Assembly: GCA_903870545.1 (NCBI GenBank)
Contig: CAIQDI010000004.1
Coordinates: 27,848-91,847 of the forward strand
Direction: 5' to 3'
DNA from: an uncultured Pseudomonadota bacterium
GTDB taxonomy: Bacteria > Pseudomonadota > Gammaproteobacteria > Methylococcales > Methylomonadaceae
DNA length: 64,000 bases
The notes under the pieces are model-generated. The model was not told where the DNA came from and did no database searches. It was given only the letters and a program-made list of their open reading frames with translations. The translations under genes and the position numbers were made by a program. Of this stretch, positions 7,365-21,671 are shown in pieces; the first letter of the stretch is position 1, and every line of letters starts with the position of its first letter.

Positions 7365-10300
7365 TTAAAAATTAAATACTTTTGCTTTTGTCGCTTGAAT
7401 CCTAAATTGCTCTTGCCACGATGTCCCTGACAATTTTTCTGCTAACGCTACTGCAAGATGTTGGGGTTCTACGCCCATACTTTTGTTTCGTCCTAAACCC
7501 TGAATGCAAGAAGGACAGTTGGTGAGAATGGTCGCTTTTCCTTCTTCTGGCATGGCTTCTGCCAACGAATCCCGTTTACGATGCAACATCGCCGCAGAAA
7601 TATCGGGACGGGACAACGACAATGTTCCCGCTTCAGAACAACAATCTGGCACTTTTTGAACATCACCAAATCCACCCAACTCATTCAGCACATCGAGAGC
7701 TTTGCCGCCCAACGAATCATGACACGGCGTGTGATACAAATAAGGCGTACTGTTATTTTCTGCACTGTCCAAATTCAAACCGCGTTCCAGCGCGTAATGG
7801 CTAATGTCAATCAACCGCCCGCCGAATAATTTGGCGGCTTCCATTTCATGCAAACCTTCACGGCACGTTCCACACGTCACCACGCAACCATCAAAATCTA
7901 AATGCGTGAACATATTCCGAATTTGATTGAGCAAAATGGTCACGCGCAACCCGTTCCGAGAATGCAATTCGCTCAAGCCATTGGCGTGCGCGGGGAATCC
8001 ACAACATAAAAAAGGCGGCGGTAAAATTACCCGCGTTTTTAACTTGGATAACAGATGAATTGTTGCCATCGAAATGGTCGATACCATGCGTTCAGAACCA
8101 CAACCTGGAAAATAAAAAATGGTGCGTTCGGCTTCTTCTTCAGGCTCAAACACCAACACTTCATCATCTTTGCAACTGGGCAACCAATCACGCAGCGTTT
8201 TTGCTGGCACTGACGGCATCGGCGAGCTTAATAATTGCAAGTGATAATGTTTCGATTGTCCTTTTTTAGGCTGAAGCGGCGCGGCGATTTTATGCGCCAA
8301 CTGTTGCCCCGCAAGCCCCGCTTGAAGCACGACGGCACGAAAAACTTTATTGAATGTCGGCGAACCGCTATTCAAATAACGCAACGTCATTTTTGTGGCA
8401 ACGGCGGTGTGCTTATAACCCCAATCTGCCAAAATTTGCCGTTCCAACACAGACACTTCACCCGAATCTATATCGACGGGGCAAGGTTTCGCGCATTTAT
8501 GGCACGTCGTGCAATGGTCGGCGACCTCTTCCAGATATTTTAATAATTCAAATTTCGTCGAATATTCGCGCTGTGCATCGAATAATAAGGCTTCGATAAT
8601 CGCGCCAATCGCCAAATTTTTATTACGCGGATGATAAAACAAGCCGCCCGCTGGATAAAAAACACAGCAGTCTGGCTTACATTTTCCACAACGAACACAA
8701 TTGGAAATTTTGCTCGCCAACTCTTCCAATTGTCCGTGTTGCAGAATGCGTGCTTCTAATCCCAACAGATTAAACGACGGCGTAAAAATGTGTTCAAGCG
8801 CGTTAAAGTCTTCTAACTTTCCAGGATTCATCAGCCCAGACGGATCAACTTCGCTCCGATAAACACGCAGAGCTTCTACCGTTTGTTTGTCCAAATACTT
8901 GAGTTTCGTTACGCCAATGCCATGTTCGCCCGACACCACACCGCCCAATTCCACGACTTTAAACATCACCTCATCAATCACGTCGTTTGAGCGTTTGAGC
9001 ATATCTCTATCGTTAGACAACACCGGCAAATTCACATGAACATTCCCGTCGCCGGCGTGCATGTGCGTGGCTAACACAATGCGGCGGTCTCGGATTTGTT
9101 GATGCGTCAGTTCGACGGCGGCGATAATTTTCGGAAAGCCACGCGCCAATTCGGTGAAGGCTTGTTTAAATTCGATGAGAATCGACAAATTACGCAGCGT
9201 TTTATAATCCGCCGTGGAAAGCTCGTTTTTAGCCGTTTCATAAAGTTCCAGCGCGAGACTGGTTTTGTCGGCAAATGAATCGTTACCTTCTTCAACAGGC
9301 GGATGACGAAACAAGGTCGCGGCTTTGTCCAAAAATTTGAGTTGAGCATAACGCTCTTCATCGACATTCACTTCGTCAATGTAACGCGAAAACTCCGGCA
9401 AGGCTTCCAACGGAATCACAATATCTTCGTTCATTTTGAAGGCATTGGTGCGGCGGGCAATCGCGCCAAAACGTTTACGATCCGCCCAATAACGCTCTGC
9501 CTCGGCATCGTCTTTAGCTTCAAACAGTTTGGTGTTTGGATATTGTTCTAAAATAGTACGAATTTTATGAATGCCATTTTGCGTTTGCTCGGCAGAATGC
9601 CCGGCAATATCAATCAGCAAAACCGCTTTTGGCGTTTGTAACAAACTGGATTTCACCTGATAATCGATGGCTCGCACATATTCGTCATCAAAATGTTCCA
9701 ACGCAATCAGCGTATCTTCGCCTTTATCGGGGAATGGAAAAGTTTTGGACAGCGCGATAATCACGCGGCTGGCTTCTTCCATATTTTGTCCGAAAAATTC
9801 TAAACAAACGGTGCGTGTGGCTTCATATTTTGGATAAAGTATAAATTTTGCGGAAGTGATAATGCCGTCGGTGCCTTCTTTTTGTAATCCTGGCACGCCG
9901 CCCAATGCTTTATTGGTGATGTCTTTCCATAAACCTTTTTTTCTAATTTCGCTGCCTTTTAAAACGATTTGTTTCAGAAATTCGCCGCTTTGATCAGCGA
10001 TTTCAAACGTTACGTCATCGTCTGGCAAAATTTTTCGTAATTGATGGTCGGTTCGGCGGACTTCCCAACGCTTTCCACCTGGCATCGCCATTTGCCACGA
10101 AATAAGATTATCAATACACGTTCCCCACCGCACCGCGCCTTTGCCGCCGGCATTTTCAGAAATGTTGCCGCCAATGGTGGAAGCCCACGCACTGGTTGGA
10201 TCGGTGGCAAATACCAAACCACGATGACTGGCGTATTGGTGTGCTTTTTCAGTAATTACGCCGACTTCAAGTTCAAGCACTTGCGCGACTTCTGTGTGAC

Positions 10301-11075
10301 CATTCCAAAGCGTAAATGTCACCGCTTGGGTGCCGCGAATCCGGTCGAGTTTTTCAGTATTCACCACCACACAATTCGGGCGTAACGGAATGGCACCGCC
10401 CGTCAAACCTGTACCGCCGCCGCGTGGCACCGCTTTTAATCCCATTTCGGCAATCGCGGTTAATAATGGCGCGAGTTGCTCTTCTTTGTCTGGCATCACC
10501 ACCGCCAGCGGCAAATATAAACGCCAATCGGTGGCATCGGTGGCATGAGAAACCAATGTGAATGGATCAAAAAGTACATTGTCAGCTCCGACCACATCGC
10601 CCAATTCTTTTTTCATGCGCCGACGTAACAAAGGAACGCTTTTAACATCATCCCGAAAATCGGCTAGTAACTGGCGCGACGCAATCAATACTTTTTTTAC
10701 GCGCTCTTCAACGCCCACATTGCGTTCAATAATGTCTAAATGTTTTTCGGTGTTCGCAAACATCCGTTTGCGCCGGCTGGCAGAAGCCACTAATTCTTGG
10801 AAAAGATACGGATTGCGCCGGTAAATTAAAATTTCGCCGAAAAAAGACATCAACAAACGTGCCGAGCGTCCCGTGACACGCAAATTACGCAATTCTTCCA
10901 ATGTAAAAGCCACTTCCGAACCCAACAGAAACGACACAATTTGCCAATCATTTGAAGAAGTGTAATTAAATGGAATTTCACGGTGGCTTCTAGGAATGTG
11001 AATCGTAGAATCAGATTTTGTTTTTGTGTTTGGCAACATAATAAATTCTATCCAAATGTAATGGGTTAATGGCAA
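7365..11075 (-). CDS. Large FAD-linked oxidase / Fe-S oxidoreductase fusion (DUF3683-like N-terminus + GlcD-like FAD domain + 2x[4Fe-4S] + CCG repeats; YdiJ-type 2-hydroxyacid dehydrogenase)
   Basis: 1236-aa ORF with an FAD-binding motif (PRGGGTGLTGGAIP). It has ferredoxin-type cysteine clusters (CVRCGKCKPDC, CTTCHKCAKPCP) and C-terminal Cys-rich CCG-type repeats. The true start may be the Met at 11039. Confidence 0.85.
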   Translation of the reverse strand: MPLTHYIWIEFIMLPNTKTKSDSTIHIPRSHREIPFNYTSSNDWQIVSFLLGSEVAFTLEELRNLRVTGRSARLLMSFFGEILIYRRNPYLFQELVASASRRKRMFANTEKHLDIIERNVGVEERVKKVLIASRQLLADFRDDVKSVPLLRRRMKKELGDVVGADNVLFDPFTLVSHATDATDWRLYLPLAVVMPDKEEQLAPLLTAIAEMGLKAVPRGGGTGLTGGAIPLRPNCVVVNTEKLDRIRGTQAVTFTLWNGHTEVAQVLELEVGVITEKAHQYASHRGLVFATDPTSAWASTIGGNISENAGGKGAVRWGTCIDNLISWQMAMPGGKRWEVRRTDHQLRKILPDDDVTFEIADQSGEFLKQIVLKGSEIRKKGLWKDITNKALGGVPGLQKEGTDGIITSAKFILYPKYEATRTVCLEFFGQNMEEASRVIIALSKTFPFPDKGEDTLIALEHFDDEYVRAIDYQVKSSLLQTPKAVLLIDIAGHSAEQTQNGIHKIRTILEQYPNTKLFEAKDDAEAERYWADRKRFGAIARRTNAFKMNEDIVIPLEALPEFSRYIDEVNVDEERYAQLKFLDKAATLFRHPPVEEGNDSFADKTSLALELYETAKNELSTADYKTLRNLSILIEFKQAFTELARGFPKIIAAVELTHQQIRDRRIVLATHMHAGDGNVHVNLPVLSNDRDMLKRSNDVIDEVMFKVVELGGVVSGEHGIGVTKLKYLDKQTVEALRVYRSEVDPSGLMNPGKLEDFNALEHIFTPSFNLLGLEARILQHGQLEELASKISNCVRCGKCKPDCCVFYPAGGLFYHPRNKNLAIGAIIEALLFDAQREYSTKFELLKYLEEVADHCTTCHKCAKPCPVDIDSGEVSVLERQILADWGYKHTAVATKMTLRYLNSGSPTFNKVFRAVVLQAGLAGQQLAHKIAAPLQPKKGQSKHYHLQLLSSPMPSVPAKTLRDWLPSCKDDEVLVFEPEEEAERTIFYFPGCGSERMVSTISMATIHLLSKLKTRVILPPPFLCCGFPAHANGLSELHSRNGLRVTILLNQIRNMFTHLDFDGCVVTCGTCREGLHEMEAAKLFGGRLIDISHYALERGLNLDSAENNSTPYLYHTPCHDSLGGKALDVLNELGGFGDVQKVPDCCSEAGTLSLSRPDISAAMLHRKRDSLAEAMPEEGKATILTNCPSCIQGLGRNKSMGVEPQHLAVALAEKLSGTSWQEQFRIQATKAKVFNF

Positions 11076-11087
11076 TCAAATCGTCGG

Positions 11088-11152
11088 CAAAATAAAGTGC
11101 GTCAACATCACTAGGAGACACTTCATTTCGTGTGCCTCCTAACGATGTCAAC
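11088..11152 (-). terminator. Rho-independent terminator after the cysteine desulfurase gene
   Basis: On the minus strand, GUUGACAUC-GU-UAGGAGGCAC [10-nt loop] GUGUCUCCUA-GU-GAUGUUGAC forms about 19 bp of stem. It contains G-U pairs that only work on this strand. The stem is followed by CACUUUAUUUUG. Confidence 0.6.
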
Positions 11153-11163
11153 ACCTTGGAATT

Positions 11164-12912
11164 CTAAAAATCTTTACGACCTTTAATCTGTCTTACAGCG
11201 GTCACTAACCTGTCCACTTCGTCATGCGTGTTATAAAACGCAAGTGACGGACGCACCGTGGTTTCTAAGCCAAAACGGCGCAAAATCGGTTGAGCGCAAT
11301 GATGCCCAGCACGAACAGCAATTCCTTCTTGGTTTAACGCTTTGCCAATGGCGAGCGTGTCGTGACCTTTCAACACAAACGACAACACACTCGTTTTTTC
11401 TTTTGCCGTGCCGATGAGCGTTAAGCCATCAATACGACGCAAAGCCTCTATCGCATACGCCAGCAAATCATGTTCATAAACGGCGATGTTTTGAATGCCA
11501 ATTTTTTGCACATATTCCAACGCCGCGCCTAATCCCACCGCATCCGCAATGTTTCCTGTTCCCGCTTCAAACTTCGCAGGCGCAGGTTGATAAACGGTTT
11601 TTTCAAAGGTGACATCTTCAATCATGTTGCCACCGCCTTGCCAAGGTTGGGTCGCCTCAAGCAAATCGGCTTTGCCATAAACTGCACCAATTCCCGTCGG
11701 GCCAAAGATTTTATGACCCGAAAACACTAACCAATCACAATCTAACGACTGCACGTCAGCCGGAATATGCGACACCGATTGCGCGGCATCGAGTAACACT
11801 TTCGCGCCAACACGATGCGCCGCTTCAATGATTTCGTGCGCTGGCGTAATGGTACCGAGCGCATTTGACACTTGTGTGAACGAAACCAATTTCGTCTTGG
11901 AATTAAGCAACTTTTGGTATTCACCGAGCAAAATTTGACCGCTATCATCGACCGGAGCCACCCGTAATTTCGCGCCAGTGACTTCAGCCAATTGTTGCCA
12001 CGGCACAATGTTGGCGTGATGCTCCAACCAAGTGATAACAATTTCATCATCTTTGCCAATGTTTTGAATGCCCCAACTTTTAGCGATTAAGTTAATCCCT
12101 TCGGTTGTGCCACGCACAAAAATGATGTTTTCAGGCGATGGCGCGTTGACGAAATCCGCCACGGTTTGCCGCGCTTTTTCATACGCATCGGTTGCCCGCG
12201 CCGCTAACTCATGCGCCGCACGGTGAATGTTGGAATTTTCGTGTTCGTAAAAATACGAAACTCGATCAATCACCGATTGCGGTTTTTGCGTCGTCGCCGC
12301 GTTATCAAACCACACCAACTGATGACCATTCACCCGTTCATTGAGAATTGGGAAATCCCGACGCACCGAATGCACATCAAAAGCAGCATGCCGACTTTGC
12401 GGTTTAGGCAAATTTTTAGCGGGCGTGAAGGGCTGTTTTATTTCGTTCAAAAAATAAAACGGCGATTCGTGAGGCACCACGGCTGTTGCCGGTTCAAAAA
12501 TGTTGCGTGGCACAATCAGTTTTTGAATATCGATACCATTTGGCAACACAAAAGCTGGTGGTGATGCAACATTTAATCCCGAACTTAAACTACGCGGCGC
12601 GGCATTCAGTTCGGAAACATTGACATCCGCCGGCAAATCAAACGCATCGGGCGTTGGCGCATTTTGCCGCGAAGCTAAACTTCGCGGCGGCAAAATACCA
12701 CTGATATTTGACGTTGCGAAAGGTTGCAACGCCGTTGGCAAATCAGCTGGAAGTTGCGCTGGCGAAGGAGCGTGGGAAGCAACCGAATTGCCGCCCAAAT
12801 GCGAACCACCTGTTGGTAATTCAGCAAAAATTTCATTCGCTAATTTCGTCAACTGTTGCTCAAACGCGGCGGTATCTTGTGAATGTTGAGGTGTGAAATT
12901 ATTTATAGTCAT
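11164..12912 (-). CDS. Cysteine desulfurase (SufS/CsdA class V aminotransferase) with ~178-aa disordered N-terminal encapsulin cargo-loading extension
   Basis: Residues ~180-582 carry RRDFPIL, FDNAATTQKP, FSGHKIFGPTGIG (PLP Lys) and RAGHHCAQP (catalytic Cys loop). Residues 1-178 are Pro/Ala/Ser-rich and contain LTKLANEIF. The gene overlaps the encapsulin stop by 14 nt. Confidence 0.9.
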   Translation of the reverse strand: MTINNFTPQHSQDTAAFEQQLTKLANEIFAELPTGGSHLGGNSVASHAPSPAQLPADLPTALQPFATSNISGILPPRSLASRQNAPTPDAFDLPADVNVSELNAAPRSLSSGLNVASPPAFVLPNGIDIQKLIVPRNIFEPATAVVPHESPFYFLNEIKQPFTPAKNLPKPQSRHAAFDVHSVRRDFPILNERVNGHQLVWFDNAATTQKPQSVIDRVSYFYEHENSNIHRAAHELAARATDAYEKARQTVADFVNAPSPENIIFVRGTTEGINLIAKSWGIQNIGKDDEIVITWLEHHANIVPWQQLAEVTGAKLRVAPVDDSGQILLGEYQKLLNSKTKLVSFTQVSNALGTITPAHEIIEAAHRVGAKVLLDAAQSVSHIPADVQSLDCDWLVFSGHKIFGPTGIGAVYGKADLLEATQPWQGGGNMIEDVTFEKTVYQPAPAKFEAGTGNIADAVGLGAALEYVQKIGIQNIAVYEHDLLAYAIEALRRIDGLTLIGTAKEKTSVLSFVLKGHDTLAIGKALNQEGIAVRAGHHCAQPILRRFGLETTVRPSLAFYNTHDEVDRLVTAVRQIKGRKDF

Positions 12913-13829
12913 GGTAGTTGCCTACGTCGACATTTTCTAACACGCCCAGCGCGTCTTCAGTCAATACGGCTAGTGAAGAATAAAGCGAAACCAAATACGA
13001 CGCGATGGCGCGGTGGTTGATGCCCATAAAACGAACCGATAAACCCACACTTAATTCGCCCGCTAAATTAGGCTGATACAAACCCACCACGCCTTGACGA
13101 CTTTCGCCGGTGCGAATCAACAAAATGTTGGTTTTGCCATTCGTAACTCTTAACTTATCGGTCGGAATTAACGGAATGCCACGCCACGTTAGGAATTGTG
13201 AACCGAATAAACTCACCGTTGCAGGTGGTACGCCACGACGAGTGGCTTCACGACCGAAAGCCGCAATTGCCGCTGGATGCGCTAAGAAAAACGCAGGTTC
13301 TTTCCAAACACGCGCAATCAATTCATCCAAATCATCCGGCGTGGGCGAACCCAAAGCGTTGCGTGGTTGAACTCTGAAAGCCGGTGCCACGTTGTTCAAC
13401 AAACCGTATTCAGCGTTGTTAATCAATTCACTTTCTTGACGTTCTTTGATGGTTTCGATGGTCAAACGCAACTGTTCATTGGTTTGATTATGCGGACTGC
13501 TGTACAAATCCGCGACGCGAGTATGCACATCAAGCACCGTGTTCACCGCGTTCAAACGGTATTCACGACCCCATTCGTCATAATCTGCGAACGTTTGCGG
13601 CAAGATTTTTTCGTCCAAACTGGAGCAATCAACCGCTAAATCGGCGGCATTTTTCACTCTGTTGACGCGATAAATACCCGCTTCAACTGGCACCCACTGT
13701 AACAAATGCACCAACCAACGGGGGGGTGATGGTTGAAAGCTGTGGGACAGTTTTGGTTGCGTTGGATAAAGTACGCGCTGCAACATCACCTAATGCGGTA
13801 TGACTTTGACCTTCATGAATATCTGACAT
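12899..13829 (-). CDS. Family 2A encapsulin shell protein (SrpI-like, HK97 fold), reading frame interrupted by a 1-nt indel in a C7 run at 13720-13726
   Basis: The track ORF (12899..13789) contains PRWLVHLLQWVPVEAGIYRVNRV ... ERQESELINNAEYGLLNNV ... VWKEPAFFLAHPAAIAAFGREATRRGVPPATVSLFGSQFLTWRGIPLIP ... GESRQGVVGLYQ ... SVRFMGIN. ATG at 13829 has an AGGAAG RBS and encodes MSDIHEGQSHTALGDVAARTLSNATKTVPQLSTITP. That peptide joins PRWLV... only if one C of the run is removed. Confidence 0.85.
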
Positions 13830-13977
13830 GATTTTCTTCCTAAATTTAAAGTTAATGAATTAAATAATTAAGTTTTTTCCGACCTCCAGATCGGAAACTT
13901 ACAGCTTGGAACATCTACTTTCCACTTACCAGAAGCTGGAGCCTCTATCTGTCTACGCGCAACGTAGACGCGATTCT

Positions 13978-14907
13978 TTATATTCCTGTTCCATCGCTAA
14001 ACAATTCGTTGCGAGCTTTTGCTTGGGTGATATTACTGCCAGGCGGTACGCCATGCGTCAGCCAAACATTCCCACCAATGCTTGAACCTTTGCCGACGGT
14101 AATACGCCCCAAAACGGTTGCGCCCGCGTAAATTACCACCTCATCTTCAATAATGGGATGTCTCGGTTCACCTTTGACGATGATGCCGTCTTCGTCTTTG
14201 CGGAAACTTTTTGCCCCTAACGTGACCGCTTGATAAATCCGAACATGTTTCCCAATAATGGACGTTTCGCCAATCACCACGCCGGTGCCATGATCAATAA
14301 AAAAACTATTCCCAATTTGTGCGCCAGGATGAATGTCGATGCCTGTTACCGAATGGGCAATGTCAGAAATAATGCGAGCAACCAGCGGAACGCCTAATTT
14401 ATAAAGGATGTGTGCCAATCGGTGATGAATGACGGCTTTAATACCTGGATAACAAACCAACACTTCATAAGCCGCTCGCGCGGCGGGATCACCCTCGAAC
14501 GCCGCTTTAATATCACTGTCTAAATCTTCTCTGACTTCGGGTAAATGCGTGGCAAATTTTTGGGTAATCGCCACCGCTTTTTCATGGGATTCTTGGTCAG
14601 TAAGCGTCTCTGAAATAAATTGCAACTCGCATTGAATTTGCTTGTAGAGTTCAAACAGCACCGTATTAAGCGTGTGTCCCACAAATGAATCGATGCCTTT
14701 ATTATTCAAATCGGGCGGGCCTAAACGGCGCGGGAACAAGGCTGCGCCCAATCCGTCAATAATGGTTTCAAGTATCTTGCTTGACGGTAATTTCGGATTG
14801 CGTTGTTGTTGCGCTTCAAATATGTTCTGGCGCGACTGACGCAAGCGCACCACTAAATCATCAACGCCCCAATCTAATTCGATATTTTGATAGCTAAAAC
14901 TGCTCAC
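13978..14907 (-). CDS. cysE: Serine O-acetyltransferase CysE
   Basis: 309-aa ORF with an N-terminal SATase helical domain and a left-handed beta-helix with hexapeptide repeats ([31 protein letters not shown]). It has a 4-nt ATGA overlap with cysK. Confidence 0.9.
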
Positions 14908-15884
14908 GCTACGTTACCTGCCGTTGCATCAAACACCCCTTCAAAAAGGGGCGAACTCAAATACCGCTCGCCAGAATCAGGGAGGATTACCACAATGGTT
15001 TTGCCTGCATTTTCAGGGCGTTTGCCCACTCGAACCGCGACAGCCACGGCAGCACCGCAAGAAATTCCGGAAAGAATGCCTTCTTCTACCGCAAGACGAC
15101 GGGCAAAAGAAATGGCTTCTTCATTGCTGACTTGTTCAATTTCGTCAATCAACGATAAGTCCAACACATCCGGTACAAACCCCGCACCAATGCCTTGAAT
15201 TTTATGCGGCCCTGGTTTTAACTGTTCGCCGGCGCGGTTTTGGGTCAAAACGGGGCTGGCTTCAGGTTCCACCGCAATTGAGACAATCGCTTTGCCTTGT
15301 GTTTGTTTGATATAACGCGAAACACCGGTAATTGTGCCACCCGTTCCGACACCCGAAACAAGAATATCAATTTCGCCGTCGGTGTCATTCCAAATTTCGG
15401 GACCGGTTGTTTGTTCATGAATCGCGGGATTTGCGGGATTTTTGAATTGTTGCAATAGTACATAACGATTCGGATCGGAGGCGGCAATTTCTTCGGCTTT
15501 TGCTATCGCACCACTCATGCCTTTTGCGCCTTCGGTTAAGACTAACTTTGCACCGTAAGCAATCAACAATTTACGTCGTTCTAAACTCATTGTTTCGGGC
15601 ATGGTCAATGTCAGTGGAATGCGTCTTGCAGCGGCGACAAACGCTAACGCAATGCCGGTGTTACCGCTTGTTGGTTCGACGAGTTCTTTGCCTTCACCAA
15701 GCAAACCACGTTTTTCGGCATCCCAAATCAATGCGGCACCAATTCGGCATTTAACAGAATAAGCCGGATTACGCCCTTCGATTTTTGCCAATATCGTAAC
15801 CGGCAAACCTTCAGCGATTCGATTGAGTTTAACAAGTGGCGTATTCCCGATAGAGCGAGAATTATCTTCGTACCAATGTGACAT
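14904..15884 (-). CDS. cysK: Cysteine synthase A / O-acetylserine sulfhydrylase CysK
   Basis: 326-aa ORF with the PLP-Lys motif [11 protein letters not shown], plus [10 protein letters not shown] and [11 protein letters not shown]. Confidence 0.92.
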
Positions 15885-16049
15885 AAAAATTCCTCTTAAA
15901 TTCAGAAAATGGTTGTAATTTGCTAGGGTATTTTCAAACTTTCAGCCGTCTTAAAACGTCTCAAAACTGGCAACGATTGTTTGCTCGGTGGTGATGTTGA
16001 GCAGAGTATAAAAATTTTTTTCCCCTTTTAAAATCAGTATTTTCAGATG

Positions 16050-16089
16050 GTAATATCTATATTGTTCATATCGAATGAATAGATATTAC
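16050..16089. promoter_or_regulatory. Candidate operator: perfect 11-bp inverted repeat GTAATATCTAT-N18-ATAGATATTAC in the divergent cysK/serC intergenic region
   Basis: The arms are at 16050-16060 and 16079-16089. The spacer contains a nested TTCAT/ATGAA pair. The site lies about 170-200 bp upstream of cysK and about 140 bp upstream of serC. Confidence 0.4.
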
Positions 16090-16229
16090 TATCTAATCTT
16101 GCTGTTTTACTTTGCAGCGGTTTCTTTCTAGTATTGGAAAAAGTGCGCTTCTAAAATCTCAATTGTATTGGGTTGACAAAAACGTATTTTTTTAAAAAAT
16201 GAATTTTTAAACAAATTTGGAGAAAAACG

Positions 16230-17312
16230 ATGAGTCGAGTTTATAACTTTGGTGCGGGTCCTTCGACATTGCCAGAATCCGTGTTGAAAAAAGCGCGTGA
16301 TGAATTGTTAGAATGGCATGCCACGGGAATTTCCGTGATGGAGATGGGGCATCACAGCAAGGAATTTGCCAGTATTGCTGAAAAAGTGGAAGCAGATTTG
16401 CGTGAATTATTAGTCGTTCCGCCCGGGTATCAAGTGCTATTTTTACCAGGCGGTGGCACGGGACAATTTGCCGCAGTGCCTTTGAATTTAGGACGAGATA
16501 ATCCGAAATTTGCTTATCTGCATACAGGACAATGGTCTGGAAAAGCCATTGTTGAAGCCAAACGTTATGGCGAGGTGCAAGTTGCCGCGAGTACAGAGCA
16601 GCAAGGTTTTACTTCTATTCCACCCCGCGCCGACTGGCAATTCGATTCGGATGTTGCTTACTTTCATTACACCGCAAACGAAACCATTAGCGGTGTCGAA
16701 TTTCAAAATCCACCCGAAGTCGGCGACATTCCACTGGTCGCGGATATGTCTTCAAATATCTGTTCTCGCCCGATTGATGTTAGCCAGTTTGGTGTTATTT
16801 ATGCGGGGGCGCAAAAAAATCTTGGCCCCGCAGGGATCGCCATTGTGATTGTACGCGATGATTTAATGGGTCATGCTCATCCCTTTACGCCTTCTATTTT
16901 TGATTACAAATTACAGGCAAACGCCCATTCTATTGTCAATACGCCACCGATATATAGTTGGTATATGCTCGGATTGGAATTGGAATGGTTGAAAGAACAA
17001 GGCGGTGTTGTCGCCATTGAAAAACAAAACATCCGCAAAGCTGAAAAAATTTATGCGGTCATCGATAACTCTGCGTTTTATTTGAACAAGGTTGATGCCG
17101 CTGTTCGGTCGCGCATGAACATCCCCTTTCATTTGGCAGACGACAATCTTGAACAAGCCTTTTTAACGAAAGCCAAAGAAAATGGTTTAGTGAATTTAGC
17201 CGGTTATCGAACCATTGGTGGATTGAGAGCCAGTATTTATAACGCGATGAGTGAAGAAGGTGTCGATAAATTGGTGGCTTTCATGCGTGAATTTGAACGA
17301 ACACAAGGCTAA
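16230..17312 (+). CDS. serC: Phosphoserine aminotransferase SerC
   Basis: 360-aa ORF starting MSRVYNFGAGPSTLPESVL, with GAQKNLGPAGIAIVIV (PLP Lys) and a GGAGA RBS. Confidence 0.95.
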   Translation: MSRVYNFGAGPSTLPESVLKKARDELLEWHATGISVMEMGHHSKEFASIAEKVEADLRELLVVPPGYQVLFLPGGGTGQFAAVPLNLGRDNPKFAYLHTGQWSGKAIVEAKRYGEVQVAASTEQQGFTSIPPRADWQFDSDVAYFHYTANETISGVEFQNPPEVGDIPLVADMSSNICSRPIDVSQFGVIYAGAQKNLGPAGIAIVIVRDDLMGHAHPFTPSIFDYKLQANAHSIVNTPPIYSWYMLGLELEWLKEQGGVVAIEKQNIRKAEKIYAVIDNSAFYLNKVDAAVRSRMNIPFHLADDNLEQAFLTKAKENGLVNLAGYRTIGGLRASIYNAMSEEGVDKLVAFMREFERTQG

Positions 17313-17753: not shown

Positions 17754-17816
17754 TTTACGCAGCAATTTATCGAATTGATAATTTGCGTTTGTTGCCGATA
17801 AACTGTTTCATAACAA

Positions 17817-17909
17817 CTGATGTTACGCAGGCTTTAGAATAATTAACGGCTCTAGCGTGTCAATTTTTCTGTAAGTCGTTGATTCTTCGTTATCGGTGCG
17901 TAACATCAG
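17817..17909. repeat. Perfect 13-bp inverted repeat CTGATGTTACGCA ... TGCGTAACATCAG separated by 67 nt, just upstream of the lipoprotein gene
   Basis: The arms are at 17817-17829 and 17897-17909. A sigma70-like TTGATA-N18-TAAACT lies at 17775-17804, so the repeat would fold in the 5' UTR. Confidence 0.4.
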
Positions 17910-17934
17910 ATAACAACTAAGGAAACAAATAACT

Positions 17935-18327
17935 ATGAAAGTTTTTAAAAATAACAAATTACAGCGACTAGCTTCATTTGTATTAGTTCCGATTGTTTTA
18001 TCAGCGTGCGTCAAAGGAGCAACAACTAGGCTTGACCCGCAATCCTATAACTTAATTCAAGAAGGTACGATTTTACCTCAGAGTGGTTTAGCATTTTCAG
18101 TCTGTTTGTTAGATGGTTTTGATGGATTCAGAGGTTTTAGTAGGCAAACTCGCCGCACCAACTCTTATCGAGTGGATTTAATGGGAATGGGCGGTAGCTC
18201 TGTGATGCTTAGTGCCGATATTTTTGATGACGGTAAAATTAAGTTTTTTGAGAGTACATCTTCCATATTAAGTACCACAGAACCACAGGATGTTTTTAAA
18301 TCCTGCCTATCGAAGTATGCGAAATAA
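17935..18327 (+). CDS. Hypothetical lipoprotein
   Basis: 130-aa ORF with an AAGGAAA RBS. It has a signal peptide with lipobox LSAC (MKVFKNNKLQRLASFVLVPIVLSAC). Confidence 0.6.
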   Translation: MKVFKNNKLQRLASFVLVPIVLSACVKGATTRLDPQSYNLIQEGTILPQSGLAFSVCLLDGFDGFRGFSRQTRRTNSYRVDLMGMGGSSVMLSADIFDDGKIKFFESTSSILSTTEPQDVFKSCLSKYAK

Positions 18328-18360
18328 TAGTAAACATAGGAAACTGAATCAGTTGTGCTA

Positions 18361-18398
18361 TCAAAAAGCCCCAATTCGCATAACAGCAAATCGGGGCT
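18361..18398 (-). terminator. Terminator of the NTase/nuclease-like operon
   Basis: On the minus strand, AAGCCCCGAUU-loop-AAUUGGGGCUU is followed by UUUUGA, 15 nt after the stop at 18413. Confidence 0.5.
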
Positions 18399-18412
18399 TG
18401 TATAGATGTTGA

Positions 18413-19165
18413 TTAAATTTCTAACTGTTTCGCATAAGCATTCCAATCAATAGCTGGTACTGTACCTAAAGATTGTAATTTTTGAAGAAGCCTAAACAAA
18501 AAAAACATCAATGTATTTTGATTTGAACGTACAGTCAAAATTTTGTCAAAAGTATCAAACGATGCACCGCTCACAGCTAAACCACAATCCAGTTTTTGAA
18601 TTTCAGGCAATTTGTCATGAGTTTCTTTAAACGATTTTCCAAAATCATCAGCCCACTCAATATTGGTTGCTATAATTCCAGCGATTATTGAAAAAAGTAG
18701 TTTTGGTGGATATTCACCTCCTGCATGAGCAATTGGTACGCTTGTCCTGTTTAGTTTTCTAACAGATTCGGCTTTTTCACCTGCATATTTTAAATAGTTT
18801 TTGTCTATGTGAGGTTTTACTTCAAACACAGCATAAACTGATTCGACTGGAATGAAGCGGTGGTTTTGTTGGTCTAATAACGTTGGTGTGTACTGATTAT
18901 CAAAGATAACAACATCTATTTGATCGCTAGTTTTACCATCAGAGTCAATTATTATTCCAGTATCAACAGCATAGCGATCTGGCATATATCGTTTAATTAT
19001 TTCTATAAAGTGTTTCTCATTAACGTCACCCATAGTTCCATTGTGTGTTACTGACACACTCGACATTTCTAACTGTGTTTTCAACATTGCTTGTTGCATG
19101 GCAAAAGACTGTTGTAAAAAAGTTTTTCCGTCAATTTCAGACATCACTTTTGCTTTGCAACTCAT
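18413..19165 (-). CDS. PD-(D/E)xK nuclease-fold protein (DUF6602-like as I recall the family); putative effector of the upstream nucleotidyltransferase
   Basis: 250-aa ORF. The core is GDVNEKHFIEIIKRYMPDRYAVDTGIIIDSDGKTSDQIDVVIFDNQ ... FIPVESVYAVFEVKP, which gives the D ... D(V/I)xxxD ... E-x-K arrangement of restriction-endonuclease-fold enzymes. It has an ATGA overlap with the upstream gene. Confidence 0.6.
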   Translation of the reverse strand: MSCKAKVMSEIDGKTFLQQSFAMQQAMLKTQLEMSSVSVTHNGTMGDVNEKHFIEIIKRYMPDRYAVDTGIIIDSDGKTSDQIDVVIFDNQYTPTLLDQQNHRFIPVESVYAVFEVKPHIDKNYLKYAGEKAESVRKLNRTSVPIAHAGGEYPPKLLFSIIAGIIATNIEWADDFGKSFKETHDKLPEIQKLDCGLAVSGASFDTFDKILTVRSNQNTLMFFLFRLLQKLQSLGTVPAIDWNAYAKQLEI

Positions 19166-19911
19166 GTGACAATGTCCTTCCAGTATTGCTGACTTGCACT
19201 ATTTTTTGCAGCATTGGCGAGTTTTCTTTTTTCAGATGTACCAATCTGGTCTGATATGCAGTTATTAGTGTTAGCGGGATCATAATAAACTTTACTTTCA
19301 AGAGAATCAGCTATGAAGTTCAGAATCTTGAGAAAATTAACGTCAGTAGCACCGATTTTGCAGTTGTAAAGAGCTTCAATAACGACTAACTCCAGATAAA
19401 ACGATGGAAAATCCAACTCATTTAAGTTTCTCCATATTTTTGTGAGTTTAATTTCATCTAATCTATTAGATTTTGAAACTTCCAAAATATGGATGTCGAT
19501 GTTTGTTTTTGTCCACGAATTTTTCTTACTCACATACAGGCTGTGATCGTTACCATACTGACTTTGTCTTCTTCCAGGTACAAGATCAATTTGGTCAGAG
19601 TTGTAATCAATACCGATAGATACGTTTTGCTTTCTTGCTTTAAAGCCTTTGTTCGTCATATAAGAGAAAAGGGACGAGTATAAGTCACAGAGTGTGTCGT
19701 TACTTGTTGATGTTATCGAAATGAACAAATCCACATCTGTTCCGCTGGAAACAGCGGTACCTTTTTTTGATGAGCCAGATATTTTTATATCAACTAAACC
19801 ATTTGCCCATTCTTCAATGTAAGGTGAAAAAAATTTATGATATTGAACCGCCTTATTTGGATTAACAGCATATTTTCGCAGTACCTCATTTACATATTCT
19901 AAACCTGTCAT
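19162..19911 (-). CDS. Minimal Pol-beta-fold nucleotidyltransferase, SMODS/CD-NTase/OAS-like
   Basis: 249-aa ORF with ISGSSKKGTAVSSGTDVDLFISI (G[SG]xxxGT ... DxD) and a third acidic residue in SDQIDLVPGRR. The helical C-terminal half resembles OAS/CD-NTase substrate-binding lobes. Confidence 0.7.
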   Translation of the reverse strand: MTGLEYVNEVLRKYAVNPNKAVQYHKFFSPYIEEWANGLVDIKISGSSKKGTAVSSGTDVDLFISITSTSNDTLCDLYSSLFSYMTNKGFKARKQNVSIGIDYNSDQIDLVPGRRQSQYGNDHSLYVSKKNSWTKTNIDIHILEVSKSNRLDEIKLTKIWRNLNELDFPSFYLELVVIEALYNCKIGATDVNFLKILNFIADSLESKVYYDPANTNNCISDQIGTSEKRKLANAAKNSASQQYWKDIVT

Positions 19912-19931
19912 ATAAACCCCAAATCAAACGT

Positions 19932-19969
19932 AAAAAAGCCCCGATTGCTTTTTAAAAACAACCAAGGCT
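19932..19969 (-). terminator. groESL terminator
   Basis: On the minus strand, AGCCUUGGUUG-loop-CAAUCGGGGCU forms 11 bp including 3 G-U pairs. It is followed by UUUUUU, about 45 nt after the groEL stop. Confidence 0.5.
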
Positions 19970-20012
19970 TTTATGAAAAGTAAAAAGCCAAAAAAAGCGT
20001 TAAGCCAGCAAA

Positions 20013-21671
<1,659 letters not shown>

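Follow-up and report, generated by a model that had tools for sequence, protein, structure and literature searches.

Family 2A desulfurase encapsulins and the locus under study

It has been reported that Family 2A cysteine-desulfurase encapsulins form T=1 shells of about 24 nm, that the cargo enzyme is loaded through its N-terminal domain (NTD), that encapsulation enhances desulfurase activity, that sulfur is stored inside the shell, and that expression is induced about 10-fold under sulfur limitation (Nichols et al. 2021; Benisch et al. 2024). In the Synechococcus elongatus shell SrpI, the N-terminal arm (N-arm) intertwines with the neighbouring subunit, which leads to a chainmail-like topology; the same study named two motifs, LARLANEFFS and AASPYYFLDG, in the NTD of the cargo CyD (Nichols et al. 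2021). The Acinetobacter system has been shown to store elemental sulfur and to respond to sulfur limitation by induction (Benisch et al. 2024), and it serves here as the best model of function. Serine O-acetyltransferases (SATs) and rhodaneses were the most enriched accessory genes among 1281 Family 2A desulfurase operons, and the cargos of Family 2B are mostly terpene cyclases (Andreas & Giessen 2021). Meanwhile, a survey of 1462 operons distinguished four standard operon types composed of rhodanese, acetyltransferase (AT), encapsulin (Enc) and cysteine desulfurase (CD), with rhodanese in about 50% (Benisch et al. 2024). The present analysis concerns such an operon in a 64,000-nucleotide stretch of DNA (the window; contig CAIQDI010000004.1 of assembly GCA_903870545.1, positions 27,848 to 91,847). 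The host is a freshwater Methylococcales methanotroph from stratified-lake metagenomes. On the minus strand the order is cysK, cysE (epsC), Family 2A shell gene, CyD cargo gene and terminator hairpin, and the four genes lie where a preliminary description of the DNA had placed them.

As judged from its sequence, the locus represents a canonical operon of the Family 2A cysteine-desulfurase encapsulins, and as such it is nothing new: the family hidden Markov models (HMMs) already name both the shell and the cargo, the sister-strain proteins already carry these labels in GenBank, and the gene order is the archetype of 1995 and 2021. The preliminary description had regarded the arrangement as physiologically informative. 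It is archetypal, corresponding to cysK-epsC-srpI-cyd as annotated on plasmid pANL of S. elongatus, from which the archetypal order was taken; acetyltransferases are among the two most enriched accessory genes, and about half of the operons contain a rhodanese. The cysE-shell-CyD order occurs in most of the 80 related loci that were fetched, and the full cysK-cysE-shell-CyD order is found across the Methylococcales and also in Microcystis, Azoarcus and 'Ca. Methylophosphatis'. What is new is a frameshift peculiar to this strain, in which one additional C interrupts the shell gene.

A one-base insertion splits the shell gene

The shell gene of the window is not one continuous open reading frame (ORF), and no intact full-length protomer is encoded. 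The frame that opens at ATG 13829 runs for 48 codons to a TGA at 13683–13685; its product is MSDIHEGQSHTALGDVAARTLSNATKTVPQLSTITPPLVGAFVTVGAS, and the truncated protein would end in ...STITPPLVGAFVTVGAS. The SrpI-like body, RWLVHLLQWVPVEAGIYRVN..., lies in the +1 frame relative to this ATG. The frames are joined at seven consecutive C residues (C7; G7 on the plus strand) at 13720–13726, the only G/C run of at least seven bases in the window. The 5' part of the gene, in frame 0 at 13722–13829 (minus strand), encodes M1–P36, the N-arm, with the sequence MSDIHEGQSHTALGDVAARTLSNATKTVPQLSTITP; its assignment comes from the translation, from the gain in family-model score and from the alignment to SrpI (PDB 6X8M). 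The 3' part, in the +1 frame at 12899–13720 (minus strand), encodes R37–K309 followed by the stop and comprises the HK97 A-domain, P-domain and E-loop body (PF19307 SrpI-like, 1.2e-100; NF041162, 482.5 bits). When one C is removed, a continuous shell of 309 amino acids (aa) is obtained, which would give the tryptic peptide TVPQLSTITPR followed by WLVHLLQWVPVEAGIYR. The shell and cargo motifs quoted in the preliminary description, including LTKLANEIF in the cargo, are all present; its continuous reading of TPRWLV, however, requires that one C be skipped, and the shell gene that it took to be intact is divided by the frameshift in the C7 run, leaving a 48-aa piece and a remainder devoid of the N-arm.

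ATG 13829 is the only start with a good Shine–Dalgarno sequence, AGGAAG at 13836–13841 (minus strand), 8 nt upstream, and no such sequence precedes the internal GTG codons at 13789 and 13711. Gene callers split the gene into products of 48 and 270 aa, the latter starting from GTG 13711 in every assembly. Compared with the sister strains, the 3' part contains neither additional stops nor additional indels. At its end, the shell gene overlaps the CyD gene by 14 nt (12899–12912), the length already given for this overlap, and the CyD ATG is preceded only by a weak Shine–Dalgarno sequence.

The C7 allele in the window strain and its sisters

Every contig that is 100% identical to the window, over up to 13.7 kb, has C7. 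The sources of these contigs are an ENA scaffold, a MEGAHIT assembly, per-run Logan assemblies (ERR4195093 and ERR4195094) and metagenome-assembled genome (MAG) records. C7 is present in at least 17 contigs of the window strain from several runs and assemblers. In a collection of 15 billion proteins, the 48-aa fragment was found on 19 contigs and the 270-aa fragment on 17, and the exact intact 309-aa protein was absent; a second genotype, which differs by one cargo residue, has the same split shell. In contrast, five sister-strain contigs with 99.0–99.3% nucleotide identity (L086–L090; L086–L088 include MAG GCA_037140555.1, and L089 and L090 are JGI metagenome contigs) carry C6, read as ACC CCC CGT (T-P-R), and encode an intact 309-aa shell. 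In alignments of about 9.7 kb between the window and L086–L088, the single C is the only indel. A metagenome scan for other run lengths (C5–C9) gave only two more C6 contigs and no C5, C8 or C9. Since a systematic homopolymer error would not sort so cleanly by lineage, C7 is genuine in the population.

Between the window and its sisters, the shell gene shows 7 synonymous and 3 non-synonymous differences (pN/pS 0.13), and pN/pS for CyD is 0.08. The three amino-acid differences in the shell are derived in the sisters and ancestral in the window. Because nothing else in the shell gene has decayed, the mutation would be very recent.

Among the 80 related loci, the site could be recognised in 52, each of which has ITPRW in one uninterrupted frame; 39 of them have a C run of length 2 at this site, 12 a run of 4 and one a run of 6. 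In the two nearest other species (shell identity 95% and 93%) the codons are ACA or ACG CCA CGT, with a C run of 2, and the site of the paralogous locus described below reads ACT CCG CGT. For the shell as a whole, identity is 95% to a Methylococcales MAG and about 85% to Methylobacter tundripaludum SV96, whose operon shows the same cysK-cysE-shell-CyD order. At the C7 site itself, no upstream Shine–Dalgarno-like stimulator, 0-frame stop or rare codon was found: the 0-frame codon after the slip site is CCG, with the stop 12 codons beyond it. A conserved programmed +1 frameshift was rejected, as neither the shift site nor the split frames are conserved among orthologues. The C6 tract appears to have arisen through synonymous changes in a narrow lineage and then to have slipped to C7.

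Identity of the shell and its cargo

The preliminary description had named the shell as a Family 2 encapsulin, and the HMM search bears this out. Model NF041162 (encap_f2a, cut-off 380) scores 482.5 bits with the ORF as written and 513.4 bits with the frame-corrected protein, whose 309 residues fill model positions 1–295 of 295. In phmmer searches the frame-corrected shell matched SrpI (PDB 6X8M) with E = 1.6e-146 over residues 10–309 and the Acinetobacter shell (PDB 8T6R) with E = 4e-143; identity to these solved shells is 72–78%. Family 2A rather than 2B is indicated by the length of 309 aa and by the lack of a cyclic-nucleotide (cNMP) or Crp Pfam match, the feature that separates the two subfamilies. 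The Family 2A identity is strongly supported by these sequence comparisons. The HK97 fold with an extended N-arm is predicted by homology to the solved shells; across phyla the N-arm is strongly conserved. An AlphaFold2 model built from the single sequence of the 296-aa shell ORF had a predicted local distance difference test (pLDDT) score of 34.5, too low to be informative. For the C6 allele, self-assembly into a T=1 icosahedral particle of about 24 nm is expected by analogy, in view of its identity to SrpI and 8T6R.

The CyD cargo gene (11164–12912, minus strand) encodes a cysteine desulfurase of 582 aa, which scores 874.5 bits with NF041166 (f2_encap_cargo1; cut-off 800) and 557 with TIGR01979 (sufS) and matches PDB 8KG1 with E = 6e-186. 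Its SufS-like catalytic domain spans about residues 180–577 and contains both the pyridoxal-phosphate lysine (SGHK, K401) and the catalytic cysteine (GHHCA, C539). The N-terminal loading domain, residues 1–180 (12373–12912), was recognised by its composition and by two motifs: LTKLANEIF, residues 21–29 (12826–12852), is comparable to the published LARLANEFFS, and SPFYFL, residues 150–155 (12448–12465), to the published AASPYYFLDG. This Pro/Ala/Ser-rich domain consists of 57% P/S/A/G/N/Q/T, compared with 42% in the catalytic domain, and its composition predicts that it is disordered. The SufS-type cargo with a long N-terminal extension is thus as the preliminary description had it, and a score above the cargo-specific cut-off, together with the position next to the shell gene, points to a Family 2A desulfurase cargo. 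A strict regular-expression count found the two cargo motifs in 27 and 14 of 73 loci, respectively, a crude figure that is no measure of prevalence.

A second, paralogous encapsulin operon

The sister strains possess a second operon (locus 2; L092 2558–8151, also L093–L095 and L098–L099), which was reached through proteins in the same 90%-identity cluster. It encodes an EAL-domain protein, a 303-aa SAT, a 141-aa helix-turn-helix protein, a 307-aa shell and a 567-aa CyD, with a MarR gene after CyD on the opposite strand. Compared with the window, its shell (P0003) is 94% identical to the corrected shell, its CyD 75% and its SAT 60%. The two operons occur in the same assemblies, ERZ4200879 (NODE_48 at 23.7x and NODE_173 at 22.2x) and ERZ4201038 (10.0x and 9.95x), and the locus-2 shell MEI7840902 and the locus-1 cargo MEI7841050 belong to one NCBI accession series. 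Because of the shared assemblies, the matched coverage and the single accession series, both operons almost certainly reside in one sister genome. The window and sister strains probably both carry their locus-1 operon alongside a second paralogous one, and it may be common in the clade for one genome to hold two desulfurase encapsulin operons. The two CyDs are nearly identical over their first 33 residues, including LTKLANEIFAELP, and the locus-1 CyD could plausibly be loaded into the locus-2 shell.

A further observation concerns protein P0008, from a JGI contig of 1867 bp, which is a clean mosaic shell: its informative alignment columns are of the locus-2 type from 7 to 229 and of the locus-1 type from 256 to 306. 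It reflects either gene conversion between paralogues or chimeric assembly of a short contig.

Probable consequences of the frameshift and alternative explanations

Functions established in the experimental systems can be transferred by analogy, with reasonable confidence, to the intact relatives of the window strain. In these relatives, CysE and CysK would make L-cysteine, and 60 copies of the shell protein would assemble into a T=1 shell of about 24 nm with the HK97 fold; the NTD of CyD would dock inside through the LxxLANExF and SPFYFL motifs, and CyD would strip sulfur from cysteine entering via the pores, with elemental sulfur kept inside the shell and the system induced under sulfur limitation. 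In the window strain, replication slippage would have extended C6 to C7 and so added one C to the shell gene; ribosomes starting at ATG 13829 would stop after 48 codons, with the remaining 273 codons out of frame. The shell would be lost or cut to the level provided by occasional +1 slips on CCC-C, translational coupling to CyD would be weakened, and any CyD made from this locus would either stay unencapsulated in the cytosol or enter the shell of the paralogous operon. A very recent slippage mutation through which the shell was lost or strongly reduced is probably the explanation of the split gene. The loss may be tolerated thanks to the second paralogous operon seen in the sister genomes, and knockouts of srpI and cyd in S. 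elongatus show no growth defect, which fits a naturally tolerated loss of the shell.

Several points weigh against this explanation. It is possible that C6 exists alongside C7 within the population. The downstream shell frame and CyD are undamaged, which fits a recent loss and would equally fit use of the gene through slippage or reversion. The C7 strain is successful, being represented by at least 17 contigs, so that the mutation is not strongly deleterious and could be adaptive. That cysK-cysE is co-transcribed with shell-CyD, and that the frameshift is polar on CyD, are both inferred, and locus 2 does not lie in the 64-kb window of the C7 strain.

Alternatively, the poly-C tract might act as a reversible ON/OFF phase switch, with slipped-strand toggling between C6 and C7 and mixed subpopulations. 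G/C tracts of seven or more bases are hypermutable, this tract is the sole one of that length in the 64 kb, the C7 allele is pristine apart from its run length, and C6 and C7 are both natural alleles among strains that are at least 99% identical. The alleles nevertheless sort by lineage, since the identical contigs are all C7 and the C6 contigs are all about 0.8% divergent; the scan gave no C5, C8 or C9 alleles, and neither the closest other species nor the paralogous locus has the tract, which argues against a maintained contingency locus. A switch is therefore considered unlikely, with the qualification that consensus assemblies mask minority alleles at the C7 site. It is distinctly unlikely that the tract, through reversible slippage or leaky +1 recoding, turns the locus-1 shell off or down while the intact CyD, with loading motifs nearly identical to those of the paralogous cargo, is loaded in trans into a co-resident second shell; two encapsulin systems of one cell would then naturally share cargo and tune their stoichiometry. 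A full-length shell could also be produced by recoding, either by a +1 slip of tRNA-Pro on CCC-C or by RNA-polymerase slippage on C7/G7. CCC-C is among the classical sites prone to +1 slips; moving by +1 from CCC at 13722–13724 to the overlapping CCC places CGT-TGG next, which is the intact sister sequence (...ITPRWLV...), and neither the downstream frame nor the coupled CyD has decayed. However, the site is not conserved, as the sisters have C6 and other relatives have interrupted codons, and it is accompanied by no stimulator and by no 0-frame stop or rare codon. In addition, unstimulated slippage typically reaches about 1% or less, and a shell needs 60 subunits. Recoding as the source of a functional shell is very unlikely on this evidence. 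Because a +1 slip, or the loss of one C from the transcript, restores the exact wild-type sequence, leaky expression of the shell is possible, and nothing points to efficient slippage.

It is highly improbable that a shell of about 270 aa without the N-arm, translated from an internal GTG such as 13711, still assembles. A 270-aa SrpI-like product is predicted from GTG 13711 in every assembly, and its ORF overlaps the end of the 48-aa ORF, which makes termination-reinitiation conceivable; but neither GTG 13711 nor GTG 13789 has a Shine–Dalgarno sequence, and the roughly 39 residues that would be missing form the N-arm, which intertwines in SrpI and is conserved across phyla. Finally, the extra C might be a sequencing or assembly artefact in an intact operon. 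Homopolymers are classic sites of indel errors, and a single family of lake metagenome projects supplied every C7 contig. Against this, C7 was reproduced by different assemblers, in the separate runs ERR4195093 and ERR4195094 and in MAG records, sisters in the same kind of data are consistently C6, and the exact intact protein was never seen. An artefact is scarcely credible and was rejected, since C7 recurs across assemblers and runs just as C6 recurs in the sisters.

If the recent loss of the shell is accepted, the locus offers a natural experiment, in which an abundant lake methanotroph strain carries a single-base shell knockout beside an undamaged cargo, while strains about 1% divergent are intact. 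Comparison of these strains gives access to the dispensability of the shell in situ, to the tolerance of an unencapsulated desulfurase and to cargo sharing between paralogous shells. The case also serves as a warning that reading a sequence by itself can silently repair a frameshift.

Organisation and regulation of the operon

The first gene of the operon, cysK (14904–15884, minus strand), encodes a cysteine synthase A (O-acetylserine sulfhydrylase) of 326 aa (TIGR01139, 456.8 bits against a cut-off of 351; PF00291, 3e-71). It is followed by a cysE/epsC-type serine O-acetyltransferase gene (13978–14907, minus strand; 309 aa, GTG start), which scores 169 bits with the EpsC model NF041874 (cut-off 150) and 174.7 with TIGR01172, under the cut-off of 210.65 of this classical cysE equivalog model. 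The match to the EpsC type, the miss by the classical cysE model and the annotation of the pANL gene as epsC together suggest a dedicated SAT subfamily tied to encapsulins. The acetyltransferase also has an N-terminal extension of about 125 residues. The cysK stop and the cysE start share 4 nt; the overlap itself had been noted before, but its sequence is GTGA, with a GTG start, and not ATGA.

The spacer between cysE and the shell gene (13830–13977) had been described as a structured element of 148 nt. The length holds if the shell starts at ATG 13829, whereas the structure is only moderate (minimum free energy (MFE) -39.6 kcal/mol, z = -2.8). It contains a hairpin just after the cysE stop, without a U tail (13951–13969), and a leader hairpin, TTTCCGA-N-TCGGAAA (13876–13897), both on the minus strand. 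An Rfam scan of 10900–16400 at E <= 1 gave no match, and a known riboswitch or leader was rejected on this basis. In the related locus L006, 104 nt of the spacer are 88% conserved. A stem-loop situated 40–70 nt ahead of the shell ATG is shared by 14 of 19 Methylococcales loci (z <= -1.4; mean about -1.65), at equivalent positions in L006–L019 and L007; its arms vary symmetrically or, in several of the loci, are wholly replaced, and it is followed on its 3' side by a conserved leader, CAYTAAC..ACAA..AGGAA. It persists in L007, where cysK-cysE is absent and serC rather than cysE lies upstream. This stem-loop might stabilise the mRNA, take part in its processing or act as an operator.

In the intergenic region upstream of cysK, the promoter scan found the only minus-strand sigma-70-like site at 16005–16032, and none was found in the cysE-shell spacer. 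The absence of a spacer promoter, together with the lack of a U tail on the hairpin after cysE, would favour read-through from cysK; the recurrence of the stem-loop and its persistence in L007 would instead suggest that shell and CyD form a separable unit with a leader of its own. Either reading of the regulation is weakly indicated. After the cargo, an intrinsic-terminator-like element (11089–11155, minus strand) consists of a 23-bp hairpin at 11097–11155 followed by the U-rich tail TTTATTTT at 11089–11096 (MFE -34 kcal/mol, z = -6.08), and none of 200 shuffles folded as well. The strong terminator proposed earlier is therefore retained; a simple scan overlooks it because of the stem length and the tail offset.

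The cysE-shell spacer of M. tundripaludum SV96 (L012 5601–6000) is 397 nt long and packed with palindromic hairpins; among these are repeats centred on AGCTCCAGCT/AGCTGGAGCT, present in four copies and in both orientations, with the look of repetitive extragenic palindromic (REP-type) elements. The hexamer CTCCAG/CTGGAG has a density of 6.1 per kb in ten Methylococcales spacers, compared with 0.49 per kb in the surrounding loci. As an operator it was set aside, being found in only 5 of 23 spacers (the window and four related loci) and lying inside palindromic hairpins.

Genomic neighbourhood

The locus is apparently part of the chromosome, where it is flanked by serC and by the gene for a DUF3683 FAD/FeS oxidase. 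The divergent serC (phosphoserine aminotransferase) lies at 16230–17312 on the plus strand, and on the other side a gene at 7365–11039 (minus strand) encodes a protein of 1224 aa with DUF3683, FAD-oxidase, 4Fe-4S and CCG regions, which resembles YdiJ or GlcD. The DUF3683 gene is kept downstream in L006, L007 and L012, and in L007 serC directly adjoins the shell gene, without cysK-cysE. As the preliminary description had observed, no rhodanese gene lies alongside: the Pfam-annotated gene calls contain none within about 6 kb on either side of the operon. A tblastn search with the pANL rhodanese likewise found no match in the 64-kb window or in the 80 related loci. Rhodaneses diverge quickly, so that the tblastn result is weak on its own, but its agreement with the gene calls supports the absence of a rhodanese near the operon.

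Between serC and groEL, a segment of about 3.2 kb (about 17758–20976) with a low GC content (0.36) contains a two-gene CBASS anti-phage system at 18413–19911 (minus strand). It is composed of a CD-NTase-type oligonucleotide cyclase gene at 19162–19911 (PADLOC PDLC00803, 8.7e-85) and a gene for a NucC endonuclease effector at 18413–19165 (PDLC00745, 5.7e-97; Pfam DUF6602), both on the minus strand. The segment is regarded as a strain-specific defence islet because the 99.2%-identical sister contig L089 is without it.

Comparison with known systems

Homopolymer-tract frameshift alleles are known from contingency loci, from +1 slippage at CCC-C and from polymerase slippage that rescues frameshifted genes. 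The window allele resembles them in that a one-base change in a G/C tract of at least seven bases shifts the frame; it differs in that the tract is not conserved, no stimulators accompany it and the scan for other run lengths gave no C5, C8 or C9.

Among the shells, those of the Mycobacterium leprae and M. avium MMP-I proteins (PDB 8WOL, 9KSL and 8WON) belong to the same Family 2A (E = 1e-127) but are actinobacterial and less similar. The Family 2B shells (PDB 9BJE and 9BHU), which have a cNMP-binding insertion, share a homologous C-terminal HK97 body with the window shell, and their model NF041163 is matched only at positions 210–449. The Acinetobacter baumannii 118362 operon (PDB 8T6R) has the order rhodanese-AT-Enc-CD and shares the AT-Enc-CD core with the window. 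In this operon the rhodanese comes first and cysK is absent, whereas the window fits the AT-Enc-CD operon type without rhodanese (Benisch et al. 2024), with cysK added upstream.

The closest counterpart in gene order is the S. elongatus PCC 7942 operon on pANL (PDB 6X8M and 6X8T), annotated as cysK-epsC-srpI-cyd-rhodanese, to which the window order is equal apart from the rhodanese. Its cysK and epsC overlap by 4 nt, as in the window; SrpI is 72% identical to the window shell over its full length (tblastn), and its CyD, like that of the window, has an NTD predicted to be disordered with both published motifs. The two loci differ in that a rhodanese follows cyd on pANL and none follows it in the window, that the pANL operon is plasmid-borne and the window locus apparently chromosomal, and that shell and CyD genes are separated by a 234-nt gap on pANL but overlap by 14 nt in the window. 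In addition, the shell gene of the window strain is frameshifted.

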